A stretch of 64,000 nt of DNA from assembly GCA_039621445.1 (NCBI GenBank), contig CP154954.1:30136395-30200394 (forward strand), written 5' to 3'. The notes below the pieces were generated by a model. The model was given only the letters and a program-made list of their open reading frames with translations. It had not been told where the DNA came from and did no database searches. Source of the DNA: Euglena gracilis. Its lineage: Eukaryota. Position 1 is the first letter of the stretch. Every line of letters begins with the position of its first letter. Positions 1 to 60,142 of the stretch are shown here, piece after piece. A program made the position numbers and the translations under genes.

Positions 1-132
1 GGCTGTCAGATGAAACCCATATTTAAGCAACCTCTTGGGCAGATTGGGTGAAACCCAGAGTTAAACAACTTGAATTTGGAGGGGAGGGGTCAACAGGTGC
101 CAACAGCAGTGTCCGAAGGGGAGCGGGGCAAC

Positions 133-594: not shown

Positions 595-1519
595 TCGACA
601 GCAACGATTCCGTAATAAACGAGACGCACAAGGAAATCGACAGAGAAGCATCTCTGGATGAGAACCGCACATGCACTTGCCTGATTCACTTTAGCGGTGC
701 AAAAAAAATGTGTTTAAAAAAAAGTAAATTTAATTATGCAATGCAATGTAGTGAAGAGCGGAGGCGCTTGAAATGCACACCCAGGGGATCGGTACCCAAA
801 CGATCATTCCTGAAGCACCTCAAACACTTTCGGAATGACCAGAAACCATTGGTGGATATTGTACTATAAATACCAAAATGCCGACCTCTGGGCTGACATC
901 CAATGGCTTCCAATCAGTCAGAATCGCCAGATTCTTCTTCTTTTGCTCTTCCCGTCGCTCATTTTTGCCACTCCCGAACTGCCAGCGATCCTTCCTTTTG
1001 TTTTTATCCATAAATTTCGAATCAGCAAAATCAAGTCGATCGTGCAATCATAGAATGCAGTGGGTTATCCGCGGTGTTGCTGATGCAAAGATGAGATGGC
1101 CACTTCTTCCCACTGCAACGCAGCAGAATCCATCTTATTGGGTTCCATCCCTCACGTTTTAGTCTGGCTCCAAAATATTTAAAATTCTCTTTTGAAAAGA
1201 GCATAAACAGGCTGAGTTTGCGGCAACCCCGTGGGGAGTGCTCTGAGGCTGAACCCCCCGTCAGGTGGGTTCGGCCACACCTCAAATTTCAGCCTGATCA
1301 TAATCACAACGAAGCCTGACGCTAGCAAAGTCTCATTGCCGGCCGGCTGGCAAAACAGTCACAAACCAGAAACCAGCGGGAGTGCATGGCATATGCTTCG
1401 CCAGGGCACCCAGTACAGTAGTAAAGTGGAGATACTCGGAGGGGTGCTGGTTAGCTGAACCACTGTTCAACGAAGACCAGTGGGGGAGGTCGAGGGGGTG
1501 GAGGGTTGCCGGGCCCGGG

Positions 1520-4500
1520 CTACGCCTTGCCCACCGACTTCTGCACGCGGGTCAGCAGGTCCTCCACCCGCACGTCCATCAGCGGCTGCCCCTTCTTCGT
1601 CCGCAGGCCGTAGCGTCGGTGCATCCCCCACGGTGGGCTTGGCACAACCTTTGTTGTCTCATAGGCTGGGGGGGAAACAACAGGGCAATCGAGGTTGCCA
1701 TATGGCATTTTCTGGGTTGTGTGCAAATTGAACTTTTGTCAGGCCATAAAATTGAGTGTTGTTTGTTTTTCAGAATAATGTACACCTGGGGGTATAACTG
1801 TACGTGTGTAACTATACGTAACCATAACTATATACCGGGTATAACGTATGAATGACGGGGTTCATACGTATTTTTTTTGGCAAGATGGGCACACAACCAA
1901 ACCTGGAAAAGCACCTTGGAGGCCAGCTGCCAACTGCAGTGGTTCCGGCCCTCTCCCGGCCAACCAAGGCGGGGGATGGGCGGGACTTCTGCTTCCGCGC
2001 CTGCACCTTCGTCTGCCGCCGCTGCTCGTCGAGCTGGCGCTGCACCAGCCGTTGCCGCAGCGCGGTCTGCGTCGCCTCCCGTCGCCGCCACAGCTGCCGC
2101 TGCCGGTCATCCACGTATGCCGGGGCGTCTGGCGGACGGGGGGGGGGGGTCAGTGGCGACGTTGGTGGCGCTTCCACGCAGGGAGGCGTAACGGTCCCAC
2201 CCCTCCCCAGGAATGTTGCGGATATTCTTGAATGGTCCGCTTGCACAAGCATGCAAACAAATCGTGTTAATGGTTTATTTACGCAGTTGCGCGAGCGGAC
2301 CAATACAACTCATTTTCGAAGCTATAAGAGCAGTTATTTTTCATGCTGTCTGTGATTTCAAGTTCTAAGGACAGGAGACATTGTCCATACACCTTATCCA
2401 TACAATTTCACATGCATTTTCCAGCTCCAAACAGGCTGGCATGGAAGGCTGTTGGTTGGTTTTGAAGTGGTCAGTTTATCAAAATGGGGTGTCTGTGGCT
2501 AACCTGTCACAGACGTCAATTGAAAAACTGGTGGCTATCCTCATGTATTTTGCTGACCTCATGTATTTTTCATCTCTTCTATCAAACACAAAGACAAAAA
2601 AATCTCTAACAATCAGTTGATCGTTGTGTTGGAATATGCACTCCTTTTGTACCTGACTCCAAAAAACTCCACAGGATGCAGGGCTTAAAAGAAAGCACAG
2701 AAAAAATTTTGGGTGAATTTTTGAGTAATTTCTCATTTCCTGGGGGTCAAACCGGGGTTCTAACCCGGGGGGAGCAAAAGGTGGAGGAAAAAACACCCTG
2801 GAAAATGGCGAAGATCCACGCACGGTGGCCTCTGAGTGTCACCAGCATAAAAAAACCTGTAATTGAAGTTGATGATTGTTTTTTTTAAAAAGTTGGAATT
2901 CTGCGGAATTACGCAAGACGACAGGAAAAAAGCAGAAATGCCAGATCGACTGCCTAAGAAGCAGGCAGTTTTGTCCCACACCTGAGTTCCGGAATGAATT
3001 CTATCAGAAAAAAACTGATGGATTCAATCTGCTGTAACAGATACAGAAATACAACAATCTCAGATTGTCATACCCGTCAACAGGGGCCCAGACAAAATAT
3101 GGCCAAAACCGGGCCCAAAATGGTCCTTTTCTGGACACCTGGCACCTTGGGAATTGATACCAGAGCCCTTTGGAAAAAAATGCAGAAAAAATGTAGCAAA
3201 ATCGAGGAAATTGCGGGAAAATTGCGGAAAAATTGCGGAAATTGCGGTTTAGATTAAATGCACTCCTGGTGGAGGGAACTTAAAAATTTCACACACTAGC
3301 TGCACACGGAGACGACCCCCAGGGCACTATAGGGTACATAGCAGACAGTACCAGGCAGGCACTGCGGCACCGAAGGCAGGGGGAAATTGATATCCGCTAT
3401 TTTTCCGGCCATTCGTTGAAAGTTTCACAAGGGCAACCAGGTGCTTTTTTGCTAACCCCCCCCCAAATAATAAACCCCCCCCAAATAATAAACCCCCCCC
3501 AAATAATAAACCCCCCCCTGAGGACCGACTTCGGCCGCCCAAATAATAAACCCCCCCCTCTGGCAGGTGTGAGGGCAAAGAAAAAAAGAGCCAAAAATTA
3601 GCAGAAATGTTGCAAAAAAATCACAAAAAATGGATCAAATTGGTGCAGAAAAAATGCCAAAAAAGCACCCAGTTTTCAAAAAAACCCAAAAATGCCAAAA
3701 AAGTGACCATTGGAGCCTGTGGAGGGGTTTTCGGGTCTAATTTTGACTTCGAAATTTTTGCCCAAATAATAACCCCCCCCCCAAATAATAAACCCCCCCT
3801 GGACCCCGACTTCGGGTGTCCAAATAATAAACCGGGGGGGTTTATTATTTGGGGGGGGGGTTTATTTGTTGCAAGTTTGCAAAAACTTGCTAAATTTTGC
3901 AAATTTTTACAACACACTTGGCAATTTCTTGGCCTTTTTAGGTTTTCCCCCACTTTCTGCTGTGAAATAATTTCGACTTGAAAATTTCGCATCCTGGACC
4001 AGATTTTACCTCATACCAAAGTTTTCGTCAATGCTTACCGGTTTTGGATTTCTCACCGAGAAATATCATATTTCCAGAATCAGCATGCTCCCAAAATTAT
4101 GATTTTGGACCTTTTTGCTGGCTAAAATGTCGGTAACAGACTCACATGCTGACCCAGTCAGGCACTGTCAAGGGGGGAGTGGTTGGCCCCACTTGCATAC
4201 CTGATTTTCCCCGAGACAACGTGGAGCATCACCAGGGGTTTTCTTAAGCCGGAGAAGAACGTATCCCTGGATTCAGACCCCCCCCCAATGGACCCCCACC
4301 CCCTCACAAAAATCCAGCCAGCACCTTTTTTCCCGTCAGCACCTTTCTCCAACCGCGCACAGGACCCCCCCCCCGCGGGGGGGGGGGGGGTCCTTAAGAA
4401 AACCCTGAGCATCACGCCTCCTGTGTGCCATTTTCTTTCGGGTGTCCAGCCAGCCAGCACCTTTCTTTCCAGCCAGCAGCTCCCAGCTGGGCTGTGGACT

Positions 4501-7500
4501 CCCCCCCACCCAGGGGTCCGCTGAAATAAAGTTCGGGCCAGCCCGGAATAATTTTCGGTGCAAAGGGCCGAAAAAAAACTGAAAAAAAGGTCAAAAATGA
4601 CCGAAAAATGGTTTTTTTGGTTTTCACATCCATATTTTGGCCTAAAAACGACAACCCTTTTGGGTGTTCTTACCCAGTCAGAACGGCATCTCGGGGGGGC
4701 TTTTTCCGGGCTGCTTTGGCGCCTGAGAGCGCCTCCGGTCCTCTTGTTCACAGCCCTCCGCTCCAGAAGCTCACCCGGGGGTGGGGGGCACACCCGTCGC
4801 CTCCCACTTTCGCTTGAGGTCGGGGCGGGCCTTGCGCAGGACCTTGTCCTTGTCGTGGCGGACCTTCTTCGTCAGCTCCTGGATGTACGGTGACGGCTCC
4901 AACTTCATCTGGTCCCCCACAGGCCTGGGTCAGGCCACGGGGGGGGGGGACCAAAGCCCGCCATCTGTTCAATGTCTTTCTGGGTTGGAGCCCTTCCATG
5001 CCTGAAACTGTGCTGCAAGGCTATCAATTTCCCGGAACTTTGGTGTGCCTCACCGCCCAGCCTGGCCGAGCACCTTCTTGTACTCAAACAGCCGCTGCCG
5101 CAGCCCCGCCGACTTGGCCAGCTTCCGCTCTTGTGCCTGCGGGCGGGCGACACGGGGCAGACGCGAGCAAAAAAGAATGGTGGCAAAGCACACTTGACCT
5201 CAACGGAGAAATTTGTGAAGATGGGATTTCCAGCCCCCCCCCCCCCGCAGGGATGTACGGGAAGCCCTGAGTGGGGGGGGGGTCTGGACCTCCCAACACA
5301 GAGGGGGGGGAACCCCACCAACCTCAAAAAATTGCTGGGAAAATTTTCGGTTATGTGAACAATAAAAAAGCTGCCAAAATTGTTGGAAATCCCCTGATTT
5401 TTCATCCAAAACAAATATAGATCCAAAAATGCTGTTTTTTTTTGTGTGGAATATACCAAAACGTCCAAAAATGTGCAATACACTCAAAATGAGGGGAAAA
5501 AGGCAGTTTTTTTGCACGTGCTGACACACGGCAGAAGAAAAAATTCGCTGTTTTTAGAACCTGTGAAAGAGGGAATGGGAAATCCAGACCTCCCCTACCA
5601 CCTGACCGCCCCCCCCCCCCACGACCAACCTCAACACCAATGGGCTTCCCACACATCCCTGACCCTCCCGCTTATAAACCCCCCTGGGTTGTTGGATCAG
5701 GTTTGGTTGGCCAGCCGAACGGGGGGTACGCGGGAGTTTAAAATTCAAAGAATTTTTGGCCAAAAACCAACCCCAAAAATAGCCAAATTGGCAAATCTTG
5801 GCAAAAATTCGTCAGAAAAATCATTTTGATGATTTATAAGTGGGGGGAGCAGGGAATTCCTTCCCCAGGGGGTTCAGCCGGCCGGCGGGAAAAAGGGACT
5901 GGCTGGATCCCCCCCCCTTGGGGGTGGGGGTCCAGGGAGGTGGGTTGAACCTGGCTGCCGGGCTGGACCCGTCTGGGGCCCAAAAACAGGCACACCAGCA
6001 ACACTTTGGGCCGTTTTTTTTTTGGGCCCAAAAATCGCGAAATGCCAAATATCTCGAAAATGAAGTAAAGTCAAGCAAAACACCCAGAGACCTGAATCCA
6101 ACGGTATTTTGGTTTCCTTGCAACTCCCCGCCTAGCCCGAGATATGGTCAGTTTACGCCCCAAAACAGAGCTGCAGGCTCTGCTGATATTTGAGTCAAAA
6201 AATCGATTCATCCAAAATTTTTCAAAAATGGTGGGGAATCAAAAGAAATTATCGGCGACCTAAAATAAAGCCCCAGGAACGTTCCACATACCAAGATGTT
6301 CGTTTTTTATTTCAACTCCCTGCAACGGTCATTTTTCGGCCAATTTGGCCATTTTTTTGGGCCCAAAAGATCGCGCAACAAACATCTCGAAAACGAAGCA
6401 AAATCAAGCAAAATGTCGGAGACCTGAAGCCATTAAACCGCCCTACCTAACGGTGTTTTGATTTCCCTGCAACTGCTCACCTGGCCCAAGCTATGGGCGA
6501 TTTACGTCCAAAACAGTGCTGCAGACTTGACTGCAGCACTGTGGGGCTGCCAGGCGTGTATGTGAATTTCGGAGGGGGGGGGAGTGAGGGGACCCCCCTT
6601 CCAAAACTGGGGGGGGTGGGGGGGACCCCCCTTCCACCTCCAGTTTTCGGTCACCGAAAATTTCGGCTGTTTTTGGGGGGTCAAAAGATCATTTTTTCTG
6701 AAATTTCTCAAAAATGGTGGGGAATCAAAGGAAATGTCCGGAGACCTGAATTGAAGCCCTTAAAATGCTCCATCTGACAGTATTTTGATTTCCACGCAAC
6801 TCCCTGCCTAGCCTGAGTTACGGCCATTTTTCGGCCAATTTTGGCCATTTTTCCAAAATTTCATACTGAGCCTCAAGAGGGTCCTAAAATACACACCCGG
6901 CGTGAAGGGGGGGGGTGGGGGAACCCCCTTCCAAAACTAGGGGGGGGGGGGGTGGGGGCACCCCCCCCTCCCACCTTACCCCCCTAGCAGGCTGTTTTTT
7001 TTAACCACCCCCCAACGGGGGGGTCCGGAGTGCCTTGGGGTGCCTGCCCAGCAGGCACTACTCCCCCCCCCCGGGGGGTCGGATCAGGCACATTCCTTTG
7101 AAAATAGGCTATTTTTGGCTCCCCAGCGCCTTCGGCGTCGGGGTCTGTGATAGGGCACTTTTGGCCGTGTGCCCTACCCTCTTAGTTGCACTAAGGCTTC
7201 TTGTCTGTTTATGGCCGGCGCTAACTCCGTGTGCCCTACCCCCCCGGAGTGGGGTCGGCACCCAACTAAAATACGGCCTGCCCCCTAGGAGGGGGGGTGG
7301 GCACCCCCCCCCTACCACCTACCTCATGTCTGCGGAGCTTCCCATACACCCTGGTGCTGGCCCCCTGGGGGGGGGGGGCGGGCCAGGCCGAGCCACCCGG
7401 CATTTACTTTTGACAACAAATAGCTCAGCACTGAGAAAAACCTGGTTTATAACTGGGGGGGGGGGTTATTCCGTGGTATGGGAGTCCAGCCCGCTCCTCA

Positions 7501-8317
7501 ATGGAGATGACGGGTGTTCCCTTCTCCAAACTCAATCAAGAATGCTTCTTGTCCTCGAAATCCCGCCTTAAGCTGTCTGAATCGATTGAGCCTAGCAATA
7601 GCTTGCTAGTGGAGACCTCCTGGTTACATCATACAACGACAACACTCGAAAAAAGGTGTGCGCAACCAGCAGATGCGCGCAGCGGATGCGCAGGGAAGAC
7701 GCTGCCCAACCGTGGCGTGCAGCCGAGGGGGGCAGGCAATGCAGGGCTGCCATGCACATCGGGCCACACCCGCTGTAGGGCGTAGCGCTCCGCATCGTAG
7801 ACCTTCGCATCTGCACTGCTTCCGCTGCGGTGGAACCAGGGCGTTGCTTGACGACCCATGGGGGGGGGGCTCCAGCTCAGAGGCTGCCAGATTTGGGCTG
7901 GAAAAAAAACCCTGCCCAGCGTCGAACTGGGGACTCAAAAATAAAAATAAAAAAACACAAAGATGTCCAAAAAAAAACATGTGGCTAATTCTGCAAGATA
8001 TCGATCTTTTGACCAAAATCTTCCTGGCCAGCTTTTCGATCCACTGCCCATTTATGACCCATTTCTGCACCCACCAAAGACAAGAAAATTCATTGCCAAC
8101 CAGCCGCCCTTTAGGTTCAGTTGGCAGGACAGCATTTACTCTCGATGGGGACTGGACAAATGCTGCTGGCTGGCTGGCTGGACCCCCATGAAGAGGAGGG
8201 TCCCCTGCAGCTCAAGCGACTCCGTGGGTGGAATTCCCCCGTCAGGGGTCGCTTCCGGAAGGGCTGATGGGCAGCGGATGGAGCCTCGGGGGGCGCCCGG
8301 GCCTTCTGCTTCCCCAT
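1520..8317 (-). CDS. Fyv7/TAP26(CCDC59)-like basic coiled-coil rRNA-processing protein, 6 exons, 194 aa
   Basis: Exons 8317-8230, 7831-7770, 5136-5068, 4914-4794, 2128-1982, 1617-1520 total 585 nt with all phases consistent: MGKQKARAPP...YALQRAQERKLAKSAGLRQRLFEYKKVLDQMKLEP...RRYGLRTKKGQPLMDVRVEDLLTRVQKSVGKA*. The C-terminal TKKGQPxM...LLxxVQK resembles the Fyv7/TAP26 motif (recalled, not searched). Confidence 0.72.
1618..1981 (-). other. Nonconventional (euglenid-type) intron
   Basis: Junctions TCCC|GCCCATCCCCCGC...GTGGGGGATGCACC|GACGC. No AG acceptor, pyrimidine|purine at both borders, 10-bp terminal pairing (one G-U) plus CTTGG/CCAAG. Removal restores the frame KSRRYGLR. Confidence 0.75.
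3455..3862. mobile_element. MITE-like element with ACCCCCCCCCAAATAATAAAC terminal inverted repeats and subterminal tandem copies
   Basis: Left end [22 protein letters not shown] mirrored by tttattattt gggggggggg tt at the right end, both flanked by TA. Related copies at about 37667-38083 and 48357-48568. Confidence 0.55.
4233..4407. mobile_element. hAT-like MITE, CAGG...CCTG TIRs, 8-bp TSD AGCATCAC
   Basis: agcatcac|caggggttttcttaag ... cttaagaaaaccctg|agcatcac. Confidence 0.85.
4915..5067 (-). other. Nonconventional intron (a GC-AG alternative is also possible)
   Basis: CTC|GGCCAGGCTGGG...CCCAGGCCTGTGGGG|GAC. CAG at +4..+6 pairs with CTG at -8..-6 and the stem extends to 9 bp with one bulge. 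In frame. Confidence 0.65.
7832..8229 (-). other. Nonconventional intron
   Basis: ATTCC|ACCCACGGAGTCGCTTGA...TCAAGCAACGCCCTGGTTCC|ACC. 12 of 15 positions pair from +4 against -6 inward, CTG at -8..-6, C|A at both borders. In frame (GEFHRSG). Confidence 0.8.
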
Positions 8318-8506
8318 CCTAGGCTTGAGGGTGAGGGCGTGGGGAGGAGGGGCTGCGACCAAATGGGGGCAAGGGGTGGCCAGGGGTGGCCCCGGCCACT
8401 GACAGAGGCGGCACGGCCGGGGTCACACGGCGGAAGGCATGGGGCCTTCAACGCCTCTGACAACTTCCAACACAGAGGTTTTTGTTAGGACCCAGGGAGT
8501 CCGGTT

Positions 8507-8910
8507 CAGGCTTTTGCTTAAGGCCCGGGGGGGGGGGGGTACTGGCTAGCCAATCGGCTAGACACTGGAAAAAAATGGACCAGCTAGACCCCCCGGGGAT
8601 CCGGAGGTCCCCCCAACTGGAAAAAAATTTTCCTCTGGCGCTGCGCGCCAAGGTGGAAATGAGGTTTTCAATGGGTTTTTGGCTGATTTTGTTCCAAAAA
8701 TTCCCAAAAATGGCTAAAAACGGGCATCTTTGGCCATTTTGGGGGGTCTCAAAAAATTTCCGGCACTTTGCGCCGGTGACTGGAAAAAAATTTTTCCACT
8801 AGCTAGCCCTGCTAGAAATCCCACTAGCCAAGATTTGGACTAGCTGCAGTCCAGCCCCCCCCCCCCCGCCCCCCCGGGGGGGGGACTGCAATCCCTAAAG
8901 CAAAAGCCTG
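8507..8910. mobile_element. hAT-like MITE, 8-bp TSD GTCCGGTT
   Basis: gtccggtt|caggcttttgcttaagg ... cctaaagcaaaagcctg|gtccggtt. Internally homologous to 10327-10768. Confidence 0.88.
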
Positions 8911-10326
8911 GTCCGGTTCCACCCACCCACCCCCTGGGGGGGGGGGGGGCTTGGGGGGACCCGCTTCTGGGGGGTCAATTCTGGGGTCCAATTTTCTTCT
9001 TCTTCGGAAAACAGAGGAAAATACCACCTCCGGTGGGGAACACCAAACACAATAGAACCTTTGCTCCGACAGGGGGACGAAACCTCCTTCCTGTCAACTT
9101 TTGGGGAAATCCTGCCCCTCCTGCCTATCTTGTGTGACAATGGACTTTGGATTCCGTGATAGAAAAATTACACATTGTTGGTTATGAACCCCAAGAATTA
9201 TGCTCATTGCTGTCGACATGTTCAATATATTCAGCTGGGTTTCAATTCAGAAAGTGCCCAAGTTCAGAAAAAAGAACCACTGTTGCATCACTATCGCCAA
9301 CGAACCCTGTTCGGGGTTGAAGCAAACTGGACATAAAAAAACTCAAACAGGAAAGAAGAGGCGATTGCCAGCCAGAATGGTTGGGTGTAACGGAGGATTT
9401 CTTTGACTACGATGGAAAACAATGCATTCGAAACAAATCGAAGAGTTCAGAGCTCGGAATAATCGACATCAAAATTGGAAAGAAAAAAAGAATCCCCCAG
9501 AGAAATTTAACAGAAAATCAACGTTCAGCTTGGGTCCAGCGCATAGATCTCTTTAAGGACCTTGCGCGGGGGGGGGGGGGGCGTGCTGGCAAGGGCTAGA
9601 AATTTGGGCTGCTAGCTCGCCCCTCCCCAGGTGGGGGAAACTAATTTTGGGGGAAAAAGAAAAATAACGAGGAAACACTGTCTTCAGCGTGCGCACGTGA
9701 CAACATCAAAAACCCATAAAAAAAAACTCCAAACAGACCATTTTCCGGCCATCTTTGGACCGTCCCCCCGAATTTCCAGCAGGGTTGTTTGGTTAACCAA
9801 CGGTCAGTTAACTAACCATGACCCCCCCAATTAATTGACTAATTGAGGGGGGTGCAGTTTACCAATCAGTTAAAGGGTAATGGAGAGCAAAGAAGCCCTG
9901 GATTGTTTGGGGGGGCAAAAGGACTTTGGGGGGGGGGGACGACCACAAAAAAAGGCAGGAATCAGTTTTCTTTTGATTCCTTTGTTTTTTTGGGGGGCCA
10001 CTCATCATGACACATCATGAGTATGGGGCTTGATGTTTGTCAGAATGAATGCTGCTCTTTTGGGTGTGATTGAAGGTGATGGATCTCCAAAAAAAGAAAA
10101 CAAAAAAAATGTCAAAAGAGAAGCTTCCCAAAAAAAGCTCCTCAAAAAAAGATAAAAAGCTCCTCAAAAAAAGCTCACAAAAATTCTCAGAGATCCACAA
10201 GTGCTGGGGACCCGCCTGAAGAGAATGCACGGTACAAAGAGCAGGGGAGCCGCAAAAAAAAAACAGGTTCACATGTCAGCATCACAACGATGTGAGGCTG
10301 GTGCAGCTATGGAACGAGGTTCCAAA

Positions 10327-10768
10327 CAGGCATTTGCTTAAGGACCCCGGGGGGGGGGGGTACTGGCTAGCAAATCGGCTAGACACTGGAAAAAATGGAC
10401 TATCAACACACCCCGCGGGGGGGGGGGGTGGAGTCCGGGGGTCCCCAGGACTGGAAAAAAAATTTCCCCCGGCGCTGTGCGCCAGAGGAAAAATGAGGTT
10501 TTTAATAGGTTTTTGGCTGATTTTGTTCCAAAAATTCCCAAAAATGGCCAAAAACGGGCATTTTTGGCCAATTTTGGGGGTCCCCAAAAAAATTTTCGGC
10601 GCTTCGCGCCGGTCACTGGGAAAAAAATTTCCACTAGCTAGTTCTGCTAGCAGACCCCCCCAGGGGGGGGGGTCTGCTAGAAATCCCACTAGCCAAATTT
10701 GGACTAGCTGCAGTCCAGCCCCCCCCGGGGGGGGGGGGGGGTACTGCAATCCCTTAAGCAAATGCCTG
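10327..10768. mobile_element. hAT-like MITE, perfect 17-bp TIR, 8-bp TSD GTTCCAAA
   Basis: gttccaaa|caggcatttgcttaagg ... ccttaagcaaatgcctg|gttccaaa. Confidence 0.9.
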
Positions 10769-12718: not shown

Positions 12719-22274
<9,556 letters not shown>

Positions 22275-22680: not shown

Positions 22681-25600
22681 TTGGAATGCCTTGGCATCCA
22701 CGGTGGGGACGATGCTCTTCGGCCGGAGGAACTCCACGAAATCAAGCAGCTCGCGGAAGCTGGAGTGTTCGCTGCGGGGATGATGACAGGCAGTGAGTGT
22801 CAATCAGCCTGTAAGAGGGGAGAGAGTGCCTGAACTCTCTGCAAAAGCGACTCAAAACAGCAAACAAATACAAAATGATACAAAAATAAAGCTAAAGACT
22901 CTGAAGACATGTGCCAAGATATTCCCACCATTTCCACTTGGTCAGAGATTATCACAAAAAAATTCCTACAGAGTTTCAATCAACACATATAAACTATTTA
23001 AATCATCACACACACACAAATGCCCCAGGTCCAGAGGAATCGGCAACAGAGTTGGCCAGGTCCATCATCGGGCAGAGCTTTCATACCCCAACCGCCTTGG
23101 CCCCATTTACCTCATCAAAGATTGAGGGGGCAACTTCCAGCTGTCAGTCGATCCTCCAGCCAACAGCCAACCCCACACCTGTAAGGCACGCTGTGCACCT
23201 CGAATGGCCCCTGCTGCCGTTTGCTGTAGGCCCCGGAGGCACCCGTACTCTGTGATGCCACCCATTTCCAGGAGGCGGCGCCAGCCATCCCACGACCGTT
23301 TCCGTTTGCGAATGTGTTGTGTGAGCAACGCTCCTCCCACAGGGTTGGTACCGGGCAATTCAGACCGCCATTTAGTGCGTATCACAACGTATCTGTGATA
23401 CATTAAATTTTTTTTGGTGATACGTATGTGATACATTAAATTTTTTTTGGTGATACATATGTGATACATTAAAAAAATTTTGGTGATACATATGTGATAC
23501 ACAAATTCTCCTTTGTGAAACATATAATAAAAGTTGTGAAACACAAATTCGTAAGCTGAAAAATTCACAGACGAACGTGCAGTTGTCCAGCAAAACATTA
23601 TCACAAGAAAATTGTTCCATGTGTCTGGAGAGAGGCAAAGAAACAAGGATAAAAAGTGGAACAGGAAGCTGAAAAAAACATTTTTGATGTAAAAATGTAA
23701 AAATTTCTTAAAAAAATTGGTGATACATATGTGATACATCAAAAAAATTTTGGTGATACATATATGATACATTAAAAAATTTTTGGTGATACATATGTGA
23801 TACATTAATTTTTAGGCCGTGATACATGTGATACGTAAAAAATTTTTTTGGTGATACATACTAAATGGAGGTCTGGGGCAATTCCAAATGGCCATTGTAC
23901 TGTTGAGTGCAGTGGCCTTTCCCTTCCCCATTCCCCCTCCACAAAGGTGCTGAGGTGTGTGGAAATGTGTGTTACGGGTTCATGGGACGCGCACACACAA
24001 GCACTGGTATCCGAACACGCACCCACCGACCCATCCACCGACCGTGTGGGCGCGTGTGGGCGTGTGGGTGGGTGTCGGGGGGTGGGGGTGGCACAACCCA
24101 CAAACCCACACCCACACCCACACCCACACCCACACCCACACCCACACCCACACCCACACCCACACCCACACCCACACCCAGCACACCACAGCAAAGCACT
24201 GCACAGCACAACACAAACACACACCCAGCCGGTGGGGCAGAAGGCAACGATGGCGTCGAAGTGGTCAATGGGCTGCCCGCCAAGGAATGGCAGCCGGCCG
24301 GTCTGCAGGTACGCCGCCACCCCTGTGCAGAGACGGAGGGGGCGCCGAGCCGCTCATCCAAGATGAGAAGTGGCGTTGGTCCCCACCGCCCTTCTTTTCA
24401 AAGACCACGAGGAGGGGCCATCAACTTCAGGGTGCCGGCCCATTCAGACACATCTCCCTCCAGGGGGTGGCTTTGGGTCCCGGGCGGGGCTGTTTTTGGG
24501 CCGGGGCGCGGCTGAGACTCACCCCAACCAAAAACTAGATCCCCCTCCGGGGGCCGAAAAGGCCTTCCCCCACTGCCTTTCCAAAGCACCCACTGCCCTG
24601 GGGGTGCGATCTTTCCTTTGGAAGAAGCCTGACAGCCCTCCCCCCCCCGACCACCACCGGGGGATCCAAAAGCAACACCTCAAGGGGAGTGGGGTTCCAA
24701 CAAGACCCTGCGCGACAAGATGAGCAGGAAGGGCAGGCGGTAGCAAATCAACCCTCCAACGTATTCTGACCACTCCAGTGCTCTCCTTGGGCTGAACCAC
24801 CGCACTGAATCAGGGGTTTCCTTCAGGCCCCCCGGGTAGGGGGGTCCACCGGCTGGAAAAAGGTGCTGGCTGGAAAAACGGTGCTGGCAGTCCCCCATGT
24901 GGGAGGTCGGGGGGGGGCGTCCAGCCTGGCTACACCCGAGTGGTACCCAAAAACTGGATAAGAAAATCCGAATCCTGTTGGTTTTGGGATTTTTCAGGTT
25001 AACCAATTTTGTTCCAAAAATGCGGTTTGGGCCAGTTGGAACCCCCCCTTTTCCTGAAAATTTTCAGCGCTATGTGTGGAAAACATTTATAGTGAAGCCC
25101 GGCGAACCCCAACCGGCCCGTGCCCGCCCTCCCCAACTTTGTTATTCCAATGGACACCCCCCCCCCCCGCTGCAGCCCGCCTGGGAGCTGCTGGCTGGAA
25201 AGAGGGAACTGGATGGCTGGTCTCCCTTAGGGGGTGGGGTCCCTCCGGCTTATGACAGCCCCATGCACCAAACGTTGCCAACACCCACAATTTTAGGCGA
25301 TGAGGTGTTTCTCTCTGGAGTGGCACGACAAAGGAATGGGCACCAAATGGCGGCTTGGGGGATGATATGCATTGCGGCGAAGGAATGGAAAAATGAACCC
25401 ACAAGTTCCCCCCACCCGTGTTGCCGATGACCCCGGTGCACGAGGTGTGCCCGACCCCTCACCGAGGGGGTGGGGGGATACACACGCTTGAAGGAGAGGG
25501 CCAGCATGGGCAGCGCCACGACGCAGCAGGGGTCGCTGCCCGGCCGCCAGTCGGCGGTCAGGCGGAACGCCCCCATGTCGAAGCCGCAGTGCTGCAGCGT

Positions 25601-28600
25601 CTGGAACCTGCGGGCGGGAGGCGGGCAGACGGGGAGAGGCCGGGCTGGATGGGAACGCCTGGGGGTGGTCGACCGCCCACCCGGGTCATGAGGGGGCAGG
25701 GGTTTTCTTAGGGACCCCCTGGGGGGGGGTCCAGCCGCCGGCTGGTGAAAAGGCTGCTGGCTGGCCTCCCCCCCCCCACCGGGGGATAGGGGGGGAGGGG
25801 GGGGTCCGGGGCTGGGCTGGGTCGATGAAAACCAAAATTTTCCAAAACATTTTTGCCATTTTCGACATTTTGATGGATGGAGCTAGATCAAGGCTGGGGG
25901 GCTGTGATGGAGGAAGCTGTGATGAGGGGGAAAATGCATGAATAGGTGAGGTGGGCAGGCCAGTTGGCTGGCCAGCCTGGACCCGACTTTGTTTCACTCG
26001 ACCCCCAGGGGGGCTACCAGCCTGAATTTGGGCTGCTGGCTGGATTTGAGCTGCTGGCTGGCTGGAGCCCCCCCAGGGGGGGGGAGGTAGGATACCCTCT
26101 GGCTTAAGGAATCCCCTGATGGGGGGCCCGCCTGACCTACCCACGACAGCACAACGCAAGAAAAAAATTTGGTCCTAGGTCCATCCCTGGGGGAAGGGGC
26201 AATGTGTCCTCTTGACTGGACGGTGGGGTGTGGGTTGGGAGAAAATGGGTTCACGGTCCACCTGGGTCCAGCTGCCATCCTGCAGGTGAACCTCAGCCCA
26301 CCTATCACAGCTGGGGTTTGCTGGATCTGGTGGTGGCGGTGGTCTTACCGATTTCCAACCGGAAAGAGGGTTAATCCGCAGTTTGGAGGTTCAGCCCAAT
26401 GCAGGGTGGGGTTGTGGGCAGGGGGTATGAGTGAGAAAACAAGCACCACAATCACATCAGCTGAGTCTGCTTGCACGTGAACAAAAAAAAGAACTTTATT
26501 GGGATAGGGTGGGAAAAAGAGGAGCACAGGAGCACAAATGATGTCAGGCGGAAAAGGCCATCATCGGTATGGGCTGACATTTGGGATGTACTTCAAGGAA
26601 TGCAGCACAGGCAAAACATTGTGCCTCACATTCCACTGCTCAAAATGGTTGATAGAAATTTGCAATTTGTCGAAACTCAATACACATTGCCAGGACAGTG
26701 CCCGATTGGGAAATACGGGAAATGAAAATGATATGGGAAGATGGGAAATGCCGCGGACCCGCCACGCGGGCACACTTCTCCGCATCGACGTGCACTGGGC
26801 AGGCCAAGGCGCGGCCCACTGCCGTAAACACGCGCTCCTTGCCGATGGTGTACGTGCCGACGAGGAACAGGGACCGCCGGGCCTCCGCCGCCACCGCCAC
26901 ACAGCGGTCTACCACGTACTGGATGACCTGGGCGGTGCATGCTTGCGTGTGCACTGGTGTAGGCGAGTGTGTGCAGGCGCACGCGTGTGTGTGCATGTGT
27001 GCGTGGGCGCATGCACATGGGCAAGCACCTATAGTTGACCCCCAGATTTCGCCATTTTCGGCCATTTTCGGCCATTTTCGGCCATTTTCGGCCATTTTCG
27101 GCCATTTTCGGCCATTTTCGGCCATTTTTTCCTGTAGGTGGGGGGTAAAGCTGCCTTAAAACTCTTTCATACCAACAATGCATTTTGATCATTCAGTCAA
27201 CATGCAAGACGTCGTGACAAGCTAACGCATCCAAGGAGGTCCGTTTGGAATGGGTGCTCAGGGATTAAAGAGGTCAAAGAGTTTTTGTTGCAATATGCAA
27301 ATGCAAGGTTTTGAGAATAGGCTTCTTTTTTCCTGTCAGAGAGGCTCTTGTCCACTTTGGTCTTTTTTTGCTGGGGGTTCTTGGGACGCTTCATGAGAGC
27401 GGTTGGCACATGACATATTAACCACAATGGCAACACCAAACCCGATGCTTTTCTCTTCAAGCCTCTTGGCGTGGATGCTTTTCACAAACAACTTCCGCTA
27501 TTCCAACTTGACACCCCAAGCAACATTGTTTGATGGTGGCACTATTAGATCCCATCCAATTGTGTGCAATAAACCTAATGCAGGAATCACACCTTTAACG
27601 GTGGAAAAAAACGCTTCACATACTTTGCCTGGTTGTCACCACAATTTTCTGAAATGTCATCAAAACCATCGCCTTTGGCCCAAATAACCCATTCAGAGGT
27701 GGTTCTTTGAGCAGCATGTGTTCCACGGTCAGGCATAATGGCAGGAGAAGAGAGGCATGACTTCAAAGAAGCCTTGATGTAAAATTTCATCCGTCATGTT
27801 GAGACGATCATCCGTCTGGATGTGGCGAAATTGGGAGAAAATGCGCTCAGCTTGAGCGGCAGAATAAAAGCAAACAAACATGTGATCGGCCCATAATGTT
27901 GAAATATTGACATCAAATGCGCTCACCCAATTGTCCAATGTCTGCATCTTGTTCAACATCGCATCTTGTGCAGCATCTACATCTTGTCCAATATCTACAT
28001 CCATTGCATCAGCAATCACTGCATCTTGTCTGGTGTGTGCATCTTGTCCAGCATCTGCATCTTGTACGGCAGCGGCATCTTGTCCAGTGTCTGCATCTTG
28101 TCCAGCATCTGCATCTTGAACAGCATCTACATCATGTACAGCATCTGCATCTTGTCCAGCATCTGCATCTTGTCCAGCATCTGCATCTTGTCCAGTGTCT
28201 ACATCTTGTACAGCATATGCATCCACTGCATCTTGTCCAGTATCTGCAACCACTGCATCCACTGGCTCCCAACCTAGCAAAATGACCACAGAAACCCCCA
28301 AAAATGACCACAAAAAGCCTAAAATTGACCGCAAAAGTCCCAAAAAGCAACCAAAATGACCTAAAATGGCTTCAAATAACATAAACTTGCCCAAAAACGC
28401 CAACAATACCACAAAAAAAATGTGAAAAAATTCACCAAAATGGCGCAAAATGGCCAAAAATGCCATATTGACAAATGTGCTCATATTGACCCAAATTAGC
28501 CCAAAATTTGCTGAATCAGTGCAAAATATCCCCAACTAGCAAAAGATCATCCAAAATGGCCAAGATGAGTGTAATACTGGAGATTTGTGAAGAAATTATG

Positions 28601-38098: not shown

Positions 38099-38141
<43 letters not shown>

Positions 38142-38927
38142 TATATATATGCAGGGGTTTTTTTGATTGGAAATTAATTTGATGGGAGGGTCAGGCGAAC
38201 TCCCGTCTTGCCTGAGAAATTGGCCTCTGGGCCTGTGCTCGCCGCCCTGGCCTTGCAGGGAGTTGTACCCCGAAAGAGCTTAGTTCTTCGGGTAGGCCCA
38301 AATTGGCGAGCACCCGAGGCCAATTCTTTTCGGGAGACCACCTTCCAACAGGGAAGGGGTCAGGTATCATTATCTTACAAGGGAGCCACGTTGCCAACAT
38401 TCGTTCTCAGCGACGCTGATCACCGCAATCCGCCCACCCGGATGCCAATCTTCCTTCTTCCCGCGATGGCGCTGGATGGCCCAATGGTCCTCCCTCCTTT
38501 CCAAGCCGGGAGCTCATTCAGGTGGAAGTCCTTGGTGTTCCCACCTTTCCAATCCCTGTGACTCTGGGTGATGGAGGAGCGATTAATGGGAATTTGCAAA
38601 TTCCCGCAGTTTATCACGCCCGAAAAGAAGGCTGTTTTTCTGGACAATATGACTTTTACATCCTTGCAGAACCCCGGGTGAGCCGATTGAAGATTGGTCA
38701 TGAAACTGCTACGTGCAAAAATAATTTGTTCAGATCCCTGGGGGTGGACCTCCAACAAAAAACAGTGGCACACCCTTCAATGAAATTTTTGGCCAGTCTT
38801 TGAACTTGACCCGAGGTGCAATCCCCCTGACGGGACCCACCCACATGAGCATGGTGTGGAAGCCTGTCCTGTGTGAACTATTTGGGAGCAGGACGGTCCC
38901 TAACTCCCGCCCCGAAAAAAAAAAAAA

Positions 38928-38969
<42 letters not shown>

Positions 38970-38992
38970 AAAATAAACACCCCCCACGGAAA

Positions 38993-39037
<45 letters not shown>

Positions 39038-42000
39038 ATATGTCCCAATGCACTTCAACCGAAAAATAAGGACCCACCACAGATTTTCACCAATTTTGGG
39101 AAAACGGGGATTTTGGCTGGGGAAAATTTTTGAAAATTATTTTGAAAAATGAACCCAAAATACATGATTTTTTGATGGAAAACCACATTTTTTTCACAAA
39201 AAAAATCTCCAAAATTTTGGGGTTGAAAATTGCTAGTTTTCAGGAGGGGGGTCAAAAAATGCAGGTCAAAAAAAGTGGACCAAATTTTGGAAAATTCAAA
39301 TTTTACTGAGAGTTTTTCTCTTCTCAAATTCACAAAAATTTACATCCACATTCACATTCACAAAAAAATCTCAAAAATTCCAGGGTTAAAAATTCGTAGT
39401 TTTTAGGAGGGGGGTGAAAAAAAACGAAGGTCAAAAAAAGTGGACCAAATTATGGCTCAGCCAAATTTTACTGACATTTTTTTTCTCTGTGAAATTTTTT
39501 GGATTTTCAATGACATTTTTTTTGCTTCAAAAACCTCTCAAAATCAAAATTTTGAGAAAATGTTGAATTTTGGAAGGTGTGAAAAAATGGGGTTTTGAGG
39601 GGTTTTTGGGGGGGACCTCCCATATGAGTCCAAAAATGGGTAAAAAAAACGCCTGGCGCCGAAGGCGATGGAAAATTTTTTTCGGATCCAAAAATGGGTG
39701 CTCCCGGAAATACGGGAAGAGCTGGTGGGGGGTGGTCTTAAGGGGCGGTCCTTAACTAAAAAAAAAAATCCCGTCCCTTACGGACCGCCCTGTTTGGGAG
39801 GGGGGTCTGAGGTGGCTGGCGGACATTGGCGATATGCTGACAATCAGAAAAAAAAGTTCCGAAGTTCTTATCTTTGTCCCAGCTTTGTGAATATGCTGAC
39901 ACCCTGGCACGGCACGATGCTGCGGGGGAGGGTCCATCCGCCGGGGCACACACTGGTGTTCCGCAGCGTTGAGAACTTCAGTGTGGCCCGCTTGCGGAAG
40001 AGGGTGGGCATGCTGGCCGGCGGGTCAATGGTGGACCCTGCCGAGGGGAGGCACAGCGGTCCGCGGGGCGCCCACCCCAAACCCCGAACCCCGCATGAAC
40101 CCCGGGGGGGGAGGAGCACGTTCAACAAATCCCAATGATTCTCCGCCCACGGTTTGGAATGCAGCGTTCTCCGTTCCCAATCTCAAGCCCACAATGACAG
40201 AGCTACTTTGGCTAAACAGGGCCGCCCCATTTTCACAATTGCCATTAGCTGCACACACACATTCAATCTGGACGACAGGGAAAGCACCAGAGGGAAATAC
40301 TCAGCCAAATGTTATGCAGTAGGATGAAAATGACTATCATGATGACATCCAAGAAAGAAAATGGTGTCAAAGGTTGGCCGAGGACAAAACGGGAGTTTCA
40401 AAGAAACTGGGGTTCTGCAGACCTGAACATGTTCTGTTACAGAGCTGAATGTTGCTGCCCTGCAAGAGCGACCCTGCTGTTGCGGCTCTTGCAGAAGGGG
40501 GGTATAAAAGCTGTGCGAACTAATTTGGCAGGCAAAAGTCCTACCAATTACCTCACGGGCAGCCTTTTTTGGACGAATCTGCAGTGGGCTGGGAGGACAC
40601 ACCGCCCATCATGGCAATGACGACGATGGTCCCGTCCACCGCCAGCACCTCCGCGTTCTCCTGCATGTAGTTCCCGAACACCGGGTCCAGGATGACGTCC
40701 ACCCCGCGGGGGCCCACCACGTCCTGGACGTCCGCGGCGAAGATCCGGTGCAAGGCACCCTCCAGCGGCGGGGCGGGAAACGGTTGGGGACCCCCCCCCC
40801 CGAGGCATTTGGCCAAGGAAAAGGTATGACACCAACCACGAGAACCCGGTGGGTTTCAGATAATTCTCCGGGTCCCCGGTATTTGCCCAACTGGGAGGTG
40901 TCAATTTCTCGGGGGGGGGGGGGGAGTGGCAAGAGGCGAAAAACAGCGCCAGGCCAGAGGAAGGGATAAAAGGCACCAAACAAACCGCCACAGTGCACAC
41001 AGGGGGGGGATAGAAAATCGACTTTGGGCCCCAACCGACCGACATTTCCGCGGGGCATGTTTGGCGGAAGGCGCGTAGGGGAGGCCTGCCGGTCGGGGGA
41101 CTGGGCTGCCCTGGCCGGGGCGTGGGGACCGGTGGGCTGTCGGGCCCGGCTGCCGGCGTTGGGGGGAGGGCGGACCACTGCTGGGGCACCGCCAAAGACA
41201 CTGATGTGGATGGATGGATGAGACCCCCATCAGGAGCTTTTTTTTTTAAGACTGGGGGGGTCCGGGGGACCCACTCAAAAATCGCAAAAAATTCCCAAAA
41301 ATAGCACTTTTTCAAAAAATTTCTGCGCCTTCAGCGCCGAAAAATATATACCACTCCCCCCTGAGGGGCCCCCCCCCCCAGGGGGGCTCGGCCGGACCCA
41401 CCCACCCTCCCCCCCCTCCCCCCCCCCCGGGTCCACGACTAAAGAAACCCCTGACCCCCATAGGGGCCAGAAAGTGGCCATTTTCAAAAGCAATTTGCCT
41501 GGATCGGGATGGCAGGTCTTCCTCCCAACGTGTGGCCAATGCTTCAGGGAGGCAAGCGCATCCAGTGGTCAAATCTGCACGTGTGCAGCAGTTCCTTTCT
41601 GTTTACCAATCCCAAGGCCTTCAGCGCCGGGAGTGTGCTATTGCACGACCCACCCAAAACCCAACCCCCCCGGGGGGGGGTCGGAAATGCCCTGGCCCCT
41701 GCTTGCCAATAGACCCCCCCGGGGAGGTGGGACTTTCCTAAAATCAGCCTGATAGAGAGCATATGATGGAGCAAACACGAAAAAGAGGTGCAAAAGACTC
41801 CACGCACTTTACTACTGGCACTTGCTGTTTCATATAGTGTGAAATTTGACAAATTTATTTCCGGCCTTTTTAACTATTTTGGCAAATCTGTTCAACATTC
41901 ATGTCCTTGTAGATTCTCAATACTTTGCAAAAAAACTTCTGATCCTTCTGATAATGTTTCCAACTCCCAAATAGCAGTACCCGCCCCCCCCCCCTGGGCA

Positions 42001-58799: not shown

Positions 58800-60142
58800 G
58801 ATGAGCGAAGCACACACCTTCCCGTGTGGCCGCAAAGTCGTCTCTGGGACACGACAGGGCGGAGTCAAAAAACCATATGTGTGGCCAGAGATGCGGTCCT
58901 CGGTGAACGGGGTGGCCAGGAAAATGCGGTCCGGCGGTGAATGGGACGAGGGAGCACAGAGGAGCAACTGCAGTAGCAGGAAGGGAGGGGGGCCAGGGGT
59001 GGTATGTACCAGGCTTCTTTTTAAGCCCCCCGGGGGGGGGGGGGTCCGGTCCGGACCCCCCACCTCCCCTCCCCTGGGGGGGGTCTTCTGACTTAAAAAG
59101 AAGCCTGGTATGTACAGGACGGGCCCGCCCCGGCGAGAGGCCCCAGGAACCCCGGAGCGCTGCAGCGGAGCGGTGCACACCGTTGCCCGGGGCGGCGAAA
59201 CCCTGGCAGCCTTGGCAGCCGCAGTGGGGCGCTGCAGGGATTGGGGGGGTCCCACCGGGGGATGGATCATTCAACGCCCCTGCCCCCTTCAGGGCGTGTC
59301 CTACCCGAGAGCAGGGGCCAAAGACAGGTCAGGTTTTTTGGCCAACGTTTGCAATGTATGAATTTGGTCTCCCGGCCGCACGTCTCCCAAGCCCCCCCAG
59401 GAGGGCAGGTTGCTGCCCACACTTCTGCTGCGAGGGATGGGGGCGGTACTCTTGTTGTGCTCTCCTGTTCCATCGGGGGGGGTGCAGGAATGGGGGACAA
59501 CTTCAGGGTAAAAGTCTGCATGCAAGGAGGAGGTTGCGACACATTTTCCGAAAGCTTGAATGCCCCTCTGGCGTTTGGCACTCAAGCTTTTGGAAAATGT
59601 GTCAAGCACAGTATAAGCCTGGTCCAAATGCTGAATTGATCTTCGGCCTCATTGGGGTAGGGAAGCCCCGGATCCTTCCCCTAAACCACAACTCCCTTCT
59701 GTGTGCTGGGGACCAAATTTCCCGCAGGGATGTTGCGATTAAACCCGGCGGGCGCAACCGTCGAGCGTACTGAAAACCGGCGAGGTTTCGCCGTAATGAC
59801 TTTGCCCTACTTTTAATTTTGGCGCTCTCCGGTAGGCACTAAAAAGAGGAGGAGGCACCCCAGCCGCGGCCAGCCACGGCTGGCCGTGACCAAATTTCCT
59901 TTCCTGTGTCTCGGGTGGTGAACACTCCTTGGACTTCCCCCCCCCCACTGTAAAAACAACAACAACAACAAAAAAGCACAACAAAAAAACTGTTCACAAA
60001 TCCCCCAATCCCCCACATCTCTTCAAACTCTGAACACCACCATACCCACCCCCTCCACCACAGCACCCGACACCTACTAACCTGAATGTGGGCGCAAAAA
60101 TAAAAAAAAAAAAAAAAAAACAAAAAAAGAAAAGGGCGTATC

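Follow-up and report, generated by a model that had tools for sequence, protein, structure and literature searches.

The window analysed here, a 64-kb stretch of Euglena gracilis nuclear DNA, carries a small rRNA-processing-like gene on the minus strand whose coding sequence is split by an intron lacking GT-AG borders. The last exon of this gene matches PF08524 (E=3e-6), and the spliced reading frame of 193 aa is open through the junction. The loose letters behind position 8353, the upstream end of the first exon, may correspond to the spliced leader. The intron consists of an element of a short repeated family together with eight further nucleotides, and an intact member of the same family lies a short distance upstream of the gene. 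The features of the locus are as follows:

8227..8353, minus strand: first exon of the host gene, with the ATG inside the exon and an RNA piece at 8227-8353
7769..7828, minus strand: second exon of the host gene, where coding continues ...GEFH|RSGSS over the intron
7829..8226, minus strand: nonconventional intron of 398 nt, based on the RNA joint 7828>8227
7837..8226, unstranded: MITE-derived core of the intron, 390 bp, with ends in register with MITE ends
7829..7836, unstranded: TSD copy GGTGGAAC (plus strand), in gene orientation the 3' copy GTTCC|ACC
8227..8234, unstranded: TSD copy GGTGGAAT (plus strand), in gene orientation the 5' copy ATTCC|ACC, 7/8 identical to the other copy
8499..8506, unstranded: left TSD GTCCGGTT of MITE 8507-8910
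8507..8910, unstranded: intact MITE of 404 bp with a 16/17 TIR CAGGCTTTTGCTTAAGG, about 155 bp upstream of the first exon and outside the mRNA
8911..8918, unstranded: right TSD GTCCGGTT of MITE 8507-8910

The read mapping for RNA joints covered positions 1-19100 of the window. The joint 7828>8227, which skips 398 nt, was found in one contig of run X1, one contig of run X2 and nine raw reads (eight starts) of run X21; X21 is on record as RNA, and X1 and X2 are presumed to be RNA. No contig of the DNA-like run X20 carries the joint, and an X20 contig is unbroken across 7871-8533. Seven further positions fit the joint equally well, which reflects a 7-nt direct repeat at the junction, and the intron can slide as far as 7836-8233, giving eight registers. 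GT/GC-AG borders are absent in all eight, and the segment is removed from the mRNA, as expected of a nonconventional intron. The initial annotation, made from the sequence alone, had placed this intron at 7832-8229, flanked by ATTCC|ACC and GTTCC|ACC with seven of eight positions identical; the RNA joint agrees with that placement, and the 7/8 match is borne out. In this register CTG occupies positions -8..-6 and CAC positions +4..+6, so that two of the three base pairs could form, and an extended terminal helix, read by eye, pairs at 12/16 positions. The fold of the whole intron 7829-8226 is no better than that of shuffled sequences (z -0.43), and the MFE structure leaves the outermost pairs unused. 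Like the euglenid nonconventional introns described previously (Milanowski et al. 2014, 2016; PNAS 2025 on E. agilis), the intron has no GT-AG, inverted repeats near its ends and CTG at -8..-6, and with those characterized in the consulted part of PMC12501133 it shares the pyrimidine|purine junctions, the “slidable” direct repeat and, apparently, the 3-nt and 5-nt spacers. It differs from the published introns in having CAC, not CAG, at +4..+6.

The element family was catalogued over the entire window. Under a strict definition of inverted pairs (an exact terminal seed of 7 nt and a TIR of at least 11/13), 1344 pairs were examined, and exact flank repeats of 5, 6, 7, 8, 9 and 10 nt were found at 2, 3, 2, 5, 1 and 0 of them, respectively; in 20 shuffles the mean number of 8-nt flank repeats was 0.0, versus the five in the window. 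The full catalogue comprises 12 copies with perfect TSDs and two decayed copies within the 64 kb. All six MITEs listed in the initial annotation (4233-4407, 8507-8910, 10327-10768, 23361-23875, 41231-41453 and 59010-59107) indeed start with CAG, end with CTG and have identical 8-bp flanks. The members other than 8507-8910, all unstranded, are:

4233..4407: MITE of 175 bp, TSD AGCATCAC, inside the GT-AG intron 2129-4793
6988..7280: MITE of 293 bp, TSD CCCCCTAG, inside the GT-AG intron 5136-7768
10327..10768: MITE of 442 bp, TSD GTTCCAAA, TIR 17/17, the closest relative of the intron's termini, outside the mapped mRNAs
13197..15092: element of 1896 bp, TIR 12/12 CAAGCACCTCTG, TSD GTGCCTTC, filled with tandem repeats, inside the GT-AG intron 12871-16078
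16323..16684: paralogue of the intron's element, with the perfect 8-bp TSD AGCCAGGG at 16315-16322 and 16685-16692
23361..23875: MITE of 515 bp, TSD GGGCAATT, within GT-AG intron 23250-24224 of the DRMBL gene
25697..26118: older copy of 422 bp, TSD 5/8
38889..39792: element of 904 bp, TSD TTTGGGAG, TIR CAGGACGGTCCC / CAGGGCGGTCCG
41231..41453: MITE of 223 bp, TSD ACCCCCAT, within the nonconventional intron 41142-42568
44171..44536: element of 366 bp, TSD CCAGTGGT, TIR CATACCATT, inside the GT-AG intron 42603-44578
59010..59107: MITE of 98 bp, TSD GTATGTAC, TIR 16/17
60450..60856: older copy of 407 bp, TSD 7/8 (GGAGGGGC / GGAGGGAC)
61341..61654: MITE of 314 bp, TSD GTTGGGCC

Elsewhere, an (AC)n run occupies 19107-19216 of the window. 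The catalogued elements have the features by which MITEs are recognized, being short and non-coding, with TIRs, a TSD of fixed length and several copies, and no Pfam matches were found inside them. The MITE 8507-8910 is 78% identical to 10327-10768 over its full length. Among the MITE ends, 18/20 start with CAG and 16/20 have G after the CAG; the inverted ends of the family read CAGG(C/G)...(G/C)CCTG, most copies have C as the fifth TIR base, and the end motif can be written as CAGGC.TTTGCTTAAGG.

The intron 7829-8226 is a member of this family. It equals a 390-bp element plus 8 nt, with TSDs that are 7/8 identical in the 5|3 register, and the element 7837-8226, whose plus-strand ends are CAGGGCGTTGCTTGACGACCC followed by a G-run on the left and ...CTGCAGCTCAAGCGACTCCGTG on the right, aligns in register with the window's MITEs at both termini and at the subterminal G-run. 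Its left end is identical to the MITE at 10327 in 26/33 positions and ranks fifth among 696 CAGG sites, outranked by the starts of that MITE itself, of the MITEs at 8507 and 59010 and of the older copy 25697-26118. The TIR of the intron's element is 12/17 and its TSD 7/8, and a second copy is present at 16323. This paralogue, 16323-16684, has a left TIR identical in 16/17 positions and internal blocks in common with the intron's element, but its right end has diverged. It is not an intron in itself and sits within one, the nonconventional intron 16155-16800 of the DRMBL gene. The two elements align with a Smith-Waterman score of 35; 200 dinucleotide shuffles gave 11.3 +/- 1.6, and random segments of the window scored 25 at most. 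With a position-weight matrix of MITE ends, the left and right ends of the intron ranked 65 and 608 of 127,968 positions; the matrix is dominated by T-runs, and the in-register comparison of ends was used in its place. Alignment scores against the other MITEs based on mononucleotide shuffles were dropped as inflated by poly-G and poly-A, and four metagenome matches to the intron's TIR pattern were judged to be due to chance, all of them lying in contigs of high GC content and lacking a G-run behind the matched stretch. The homology between intron termini and a TIR family that the initial annotation had anticipated is thus borne out for 7829-8226, the only family member among the 13 nonconventional introns mapped in the window.

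Several catalogued copies reside in introns (five in GT-AG introns and two, 16323 and 41231, in nonconventional ones), as would be expected had a MITE entered a pre-existing nonconventional intron at 7829-8226 and the 7-nt junction repeat arisen by chance. This coincidence is barely credible, given that nothing of the intron extends beyond the element plus 8 nt and that 0/156 mismatched junction pairs among the 13 introns reached 7/8. The relationship could also be turned around, with nonconventional introns being mobile (for instance, via circular RNA) and the non-exonic MITE-like copies being introns that have dispersed. Excised nonconventional introns do occur as circular RNAs (PMC11282704, in the part consulted), and transcribed introns harbour several MITEs as well as the copy at 16323. 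Fixed-length 8-bp TSDs combined with TIRs are, however, the mark of cut-and-paste insertion of DNA; 8507-8910 and 10327-10768 are outside the mapped mRNAs; and by our reading of the catalogue, 8/12 perfect-TSD copies are inside mapped introns while 0/12 are introns themselves. We regard this direction of events as very improbable.

The best explanation, to which we assign a probability of roughly 0.7, is that the intron 7829-8226 was made by insertion of a MITE with an 8-bp TSD and is spliced out as the element plus one TSD. A family of MITEs, cut-and-paste elements that are short and non-coding, would duplicate 8 bp of target on insertion, and one old copy (7837-8226) would have inserted into the coding sequence of the rRNA-processing-like gene at the target ATTCCACC. 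Nonconventional splicing would then remove the element with 8 flanking nucleotides, of which, in the published register, 3 precede the 5' inverted end and 5 follow the 3' inverted end; exactly one TSD would leave with the element, and the original reading frame would therefore be restored. The RNA does lack exactly the element plus 8 nt and its frame is restored, so that the proposal of the initial annotation that excision of a MITE with one TSD regenerates the mRNA holds for this intron. The insertion probably created the intron at once, although none of the 12 perfect-TSD copies, all of which are in introns or outside genes, is a young exonic insertion being spliced. Nonconventional introns need spacers of 3 bp and 5 bp for splicing (PMC12501133, in the part consulted), and these add up to 8, the TSD length of the MITEs in the window, which offers a simple reason for the experimentally defined spacer values. 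Repeats of eight nucleotides have also been reported at the junctions of a gapC intron newly gained in E. agilis (PMC4770533, in the part consulted), in line with this explanation.

As to the superfamily, Ac-group hAT elements prefer the target nTnnnnAn, and the hAT end consensus has G at the fifth base. The TSDs of the 12 copies have T at position 2 in six cases and A at position 7 in six (combined p=0.005, from a small sample), which may reflect the Ac-type preference. No transposase domain was detected by Pfam in the 481 ORFs of at least 75 aa from the whole window or in 87 shorter minus-strand ORFs (22400-31000 and 35800-46500); the scanned ORFs matched only DRMBL, ADH_N and ADH_zinc_N, apart from scattered matches below the cutoff. 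Because no transposase was found in the window, we infer the hAT-like affinity of the family from the TSD length, the CAG termini and the weak target bias. Short TIRs of 10-25 bp and 8-bp TSDs are hAT features according to the consulted part of PMC3942097, and the window MITEs have both. Like the hAT MITEs described there, such as those derived from BuT2, they are non-coding, with an 8-bp TSD, TIRs of about 17 bp and TSDs that match within each copy but vary from copy to copy; they differ from those MITEs in the unusual subterminal G/C runs, the lack of a linked transposase in the window and a superfamily assigned indirectly. The family that made the intron might instead be a non-hAT one with 8-bp TSDs, such as a P-like group, a Mutator-like group or Merlin. 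The same organism, E. gracilis, has two documented Merlin families that make 8-bp TSDs (PMC8101967, in the part consulted), the ORFs scanned yielded neither a hAT transposase nor a hAT dimerisation domain, and the fifth TIR base is mostly C, versus G in the hAT consensus. Merlin TIRs, however, have a conserved terminal 5'-GG-3' by the description in PMC8101967, whereas 18/20 ends here start with CAG; together with the TIR and TSD lengths and the target bias, this makes a non-hAT origin unlikely, though one to be reckoned with. The hAT assignment made in the initial annotation has in its favour the 8-bp TSD, the short TIRs, the CAG termini and the weak target bias, and against it the missing transposase among the window ORFs scanned and the 8-bp TSDs of E. 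gracilis Merlin elements.

Since the 1990s it has been an open question how euglenid nonconventional introns originate and how they are removed. In the consulted part of the 2014 paper, no transposable element had been identified in euglenid genomes at that time, and the later papers, in the parts consulted, still call the origin unclear. Earlier publications already propose a MITE origin and note TIR- and TSD-like features in these introns (PMC11282704, in the part consulted), as the initial annotation had surmised, the idea having been proposed on general grounds since 2014. A link to hAT elements or to the sum 3+5=8 was not found in the literature searched, nor was the assignment of a nonconventional intron to an identifiable family of elements with 8-bp TSDs found in the euglenid intron literature examined; 7829-8226 differs from the published introns in being assignable to such a repeated family in the same genome. 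The window offers a definite element family and, as a member of it, one intron verified by RNA whose TSD is in the predicted register; with them comes a concrete and testable account of the origin of a puzzling class of introns. The introners of Micromonas and Aureococcus and other transposon-derived introns (PMC11282704, in the part consulted) are alike in that an exonic element with TIRs and a TSD is removed as an intron, the TSD allowing precise restoration. Introners, however, carry or co-opt GT/AG and are spliceosomal, whereas 7829-8226 follows a code of structure and distance, with no GT-AG and one 8-bp TSD leaving as 3+5.

Whether the rule generalises was assessed on the 13 nonconventional introns mapped in the window, 10 of which owe their placement to protein matches with transcripts not quite identical to the window; two transcript-derived proteins, reached via the DRMBL, ADH_N and ADH_zinc_N matches, were used for the exon mapping. 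One of the introns proposed initially, 40775-42565, was wrong as drawn, since the transcript-derived Euglena protein P0002 has an exon within that interval, at about 41089-41145. The 5' end of the proposed intron stands but its 3' end had swallowed this exon, and it is replaced by 41142-42568 (1424 nt) and 40745-41093 (344 nt). Since the 3' end was wrong, the 6/8 junction identity quoted for it is spurious; the true introns have 3-4/8 and 4-5/8. A TSD of at least 7/8 is present in one of the 13 nonconventional introns, the other 12 scoring 2-6/8, which does not surpass the 1-6/8 of 21 conventional introns. Many introns from different genes belonging to one element family would characterize an introner, and mass introner behaviour is not supported in the window because one of 13 is a family member. 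The view of MITEs as the generator of euglenid nonconventional introns therefore stands for 7829-8226 but not as a general rule within the window.

The comparison of junction identity suggested in the initial annotation, performed on the window introns against deranged pairs and conventional introns, did reveal an excess. The identity over -5..+3 summed to 49 for the 13 introns versus 34.4 +/- 4.3 in deranged pairs (P=0.0004) and, with 7829-8226 left out, to 42 versus 31.3 (P=0.0074), which is a weak excess. For these 12 introns it is confined to -2..+3, with 11 identities observed at -5..-3 and about 10.3 expected, so that a sharp 8-nt window is not supported. An excess that is short and central resembles microhomology and would suit an origin by repair of a staggered double-strand break with captured filler DNA, the junction repeats being scars and the likeness to MITEs incidental, as was proposed for the newly gained gapC intron of E. 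agilis with its eight-nucleotide junction repeats (PMC4770533, in the part consulted). For 7829-8226, however, the filler would have to be exactly one complete element, since the intron is bounded by the two TIR ends plus 8 nt, and elements of the same type occur elsewhere in the window with perfect 8-bp TSDs; we therefore consider such an origin quite improbable. The spacers, read by eye, add up to a value other than 8 in 1617-1980 (7), 40745-41093 (6), 21793-22233 (6) and 41142-42568 (5 or 9), with 12510-12776 as a possible fifth case, i.e. in 4-5/13 introns.

With insertion of a MITE and removal of the element plus one TSD as the preferred reading for 7829-8226, a broader conjecture can be advanced tentatively, at somewhat less than even odds. 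The euglenid splicing code (the CAG/CTG stem with 3 nt upstream and 5 nt downstream) would be an RNA-level excision matched to one class of DNA transposons, with cut distances that sum to the 8-bp TSD; an exonic insertion would be a precise intron from birth wherever the first base of the exon is a tolerated one; and most of the hundreds of thousands of euglenid nonconventional introns would be decayed elements with 8-bp TSDs. Under this conjecture the spliced-out RNA would have a 3' overhang of 2 nt at its TIR stem, a geometry that may recall enzymes measuring dsRNA. In E. agilis, nonconventional introns make up 71.8% of 649,158 introns, and “slidable” introns were excluded before the consensus motifs were derived (PMC12501133, in the part consulted). 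The slidable introns would be those with intact TSDs, which makes the hypothesis testable with existing data. In the window, 9/12 of the nonconventional-intron ends that start with CAG have G as the next base (background 0.297, p=0.0016), compared with 16/20 MITE ends, and many other nonconventional introns may have arisen in the same way as 7829-8226.

The window (GC ~52%) is nuclear DNA of Euglena gracilis or of a near relative, since the proteins of EG_transcript_24767 and EG_transcript_5142 match it exon by exon at about 85-100% identity. Three genes could be mapped in it, all on the minus strand:

8353-8227, 7828-7769, 5135-5067, 4913-4794, 2128-1981 and 1616-1435, minus strand, exons of a gene for a small basic protein (RNA joints and ORF)
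30391 to 12258, minus strand, DRMBL/SNM1-like gene of 22 exons (domain match and protein mapping)
54686 to about 36058, minus strand, zinc-type dehydrogenase gene (domain match and protein mapping)

The last exon of the first gene matches PF08524 rRNA_processing (E=3e-6). Splice joints in 1-19100 were defined by comparing two putative RNA contig sets and one RNA raw-read run with one DNA-like run; six joints were found, none of them in the DNA-like run:

238-527, 2129-4793 and 5136-7768, minus strand, GT-AG introns
1617-1980, 4914-5066 and 7829-8226, nonconventional introns

The initial annotation had proposed that the nonconventional intron which it placed at 7832-8229 derives from a hAT-type MITE, three nucleotides of one target site duplication (TSD) and five of the other being spliced out with the element. 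The same intron is seen in RNA as the joint 7829-8226, at which 398 nt are skipped and seven further positions fit equally. In gene orientation it reads ...ATTCC/ACC CACGGAGTCGCTTGAGC ... TCAAGCAACGCC CTG GTTCC/ACC..., and the element within it has imperfect inverted ends (12/17) and the flanks ATTCCACC and GTTCCACC. Both ends align in register with MITE ends. Of the element's first 33 nt, 26 are shared with the MITE 10327-10768, among them the beginning of the G-run. This match ranks fifth among 696 CAGG sites, behind that MITE, the starts of two other catalogued MITEs and that of an older copy at 25697; after a score of 25, the next is at most 21. A paralogue at 16323-16684 is identical to the element at 16 of 17 positions of one end and shares internal blocks with it (Smith-Waterman score 35 versus 11.3 +/- 1.6 in 200 dinucleotide shuffles; maximum 25 for random window segments). 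The in-register ends, the rank of the match and the paralogue thus make the element a member of the MITE family. The intron lies within coding sequence (spliced ORF ...LTGEFH/RSGSS...), and we regard the proposed MITE origin as correct for it.

All six MITEs initially read from the sequence start with CAG, end with CTG and have identical 8-bp flanks (6/6), and a relaxed scan for an exact 8-bp flank repeat and terminal inverted repeats (TIRs) of at least 10/12 returned 22 candidates. Five were accepted and a further copy was added, whereas the remaining candidates were known MITEs again (four) or low-complexity or overlapping and were dropped:

6988-7280, 13197-15092, 38889-39792, 44171-44536 and 61341-61654, additional MITEs
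16323-16684, further copy, TSD AGCCAGGG

Two older copies have decayed TSDs (7/8 and 5/8). Under strict criteria, 1344 inverted pairs yielded 2, 3, 2, 5, 1 and 0 exact flank repeats at lengths 5 to 10, with a mean of 0.0 at length 8 in 20 shuffles against the five observed. The MITEs 8507-8910 and 10327-10768 share 78% identity from end to end, and MITE ends start with CAG in 18 of 20 cases and with CAGG in 16 of 20. In the DNA-like run, word depths over the MITEs reach thousands of times the single-copy level, although such depth does not measure copy number. Neither the 481 ORFs of at least 75 aa from the whole window nor 87 minus-strand ORFs below that length, taken from two regions, yielded a transposase domain. 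All 12 perfect-TSD copies sit in introns or outside mapped genes, and none is a young exonic insertion showing "instant" splicing. About 155 bp upstream of the small basic protein gene's first exon is an intact MITE, 8507-8910. An RNA contig runs past the end of this exon at 8353, where an AG acceptor is found (8354-8353, minus strand), and the letters beyond resemble what we take to be the Euglena spliced leader's 3' end in reverse complement.

As to the superfamily, six of the 12 TSDs have T at position 2 and six have A at position 7 (p=0.005), in agreement with the Ac-type target preference. An 8-bp TSD with TIRs of 10-25 bp is the hAT pattern (excerpt of PMC3942097). Merlin elements, which also have 8-bp TSDs, are present in E. 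gracilis, and their ends are said to start with GG (excerpt of PMC8101967). We lean slightly towards a hAT-like affiliation.

Whether the rule generalizes was assessed on 13 nonconventional and 21 conventional introns, RNA-defined or protein-inferred, the latter solved with two transcript-derived proteins, whose sequence had to be reproduced without change over every junction. The second worked example, 40775-42565, did not survive, as P0002, a transcript-derived Euglena dehydrogenase protein, places an exon of 17 residues (about 41089-41145) inside it. When the last five exon and first three intron nucleotides are compared with the last five intron and first three exon nucleotides, the nonconventional introns show 2, 2, 2, 2, 3, 3, 3, 4, 5, 5, 5, 6 and 7 matches of 8, with a mean of 3.77 versus 2.65 for mismatched pairs (n=13); the conventional introns average 3.86 versus 3.57 (n=21). 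Over the -5..+3 window this amounts to 49 matches against 34.4 +/- 4.3 expected (P=0.0004, 5000 derangements), or 42 against 31.3 without intron 7829-8226 (P=0.0074). The excess of junction repeats is therefore real, but a sharp 8-nt window does not emerge at n=13; the excess is confined to -2..+3, with none at -5..-3. Spacer sums, read by eye from printed ends, equal 8 in eight or nine of the 13 introns, the others being 7, 6, 6 and, for one intron, either 5 or 9, with one more ambiguous. Intron ends starting with CAG continue with G in 9 of 12 cases, like MITE ends (p=0.0016); four nonconventional intron ends (in 7832-8229, 20433-21756 and 41143-42566) start with CACGG instead of CAGG and may represent a second terminal subtype. 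The initial observations are largely borne out, one of the two worked examples being wrong, and MITE insertion as the general origin of nonconventional introns is plausible but unproven.

That these introns stem from MITEs has been suggested before. Such an origin was proposed from inverted repeats in PMC3935182, which in the same excerpt describes euglenid transposable elements as yet to be identified, and was restated in PMC6221363 and PMC12621601 (excerpts). Eight-nucleotide direct repeats were reported at a gapC intron newly acquired in E. agilis, and double-strand-break repair was suggested for it (excerpt of PMC4770533). CAG/CTG has been labelled "TIR" and the junction repeats "TSD-like" (excerpt of PMC11282704). 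The 3-bp and 5-bp spacers matter according to PMC12501133, in which slidable introns were left out of the motif analysis and, in the excerpted part, intron origin is called still unclear, with MITE-like elements a possible source. Our literature search, covering the main text of non-paywalled papers, found no link of nonconventional introns to hAT elements, nor of 3+5 to an 8-bp TSD. New here are the identified element family, an intron that belongs to it and keeps its TSD in register, and the argument that 3+5 equals one TSD.

Several minor observations concern individual introns and elements. A protein-inferred nonconventional intron at 19256-19306 is only 50 nt long, with 3+5 spacers and a near-perfect inverted end (CAGGGTGGGGC / CAGGGCGGGGC). 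In the dehydrogenase gene, exon G (41089-41145) contains a 9-residue stretch, ARAAQSPDR, which is missing from the homologue P0001 and directly adjoins the nonconventional intron between exons G and H (40745-41093); it could reflect a shifted junction or exonized intron ends. P0002 differs from the window (54686-36058) at a few residues, e.g. SPPDGQ versus SPSEGQ, and its transcript could derive from another allele or a paralogue, a caveat for the protein-inferred junctions. There are two long simple repeats, (AC)55 at 19107-19216, which falls in one of the introns mapped for the DRMBL gene, and a CA-rich array at 21198-21727. Although its 8-bp TSD is perfect, the copy 16323-16684 has a right end (…CTCCATG) that does not resemble its left TIR but matches an internal CCATG of the element in intron 7829-8226, which suggests that an alternative internal end was used. 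The 1.9-kb element 13197-15092, with a perfect 12-bp TIR (CAAGCACCTCTG) and an 8-bp TSD, consists internally almost entirely of tandem repeats with periods of 10, 18, 20 and 30, and the DNA-like run covers it at very high word depth. An inverted-end pair at 43576-44048 (CAGGGGGGGGAAA), flanked by the exact 7-bp repeat CAAAGTC, may be a variant element or a chance occurrence.
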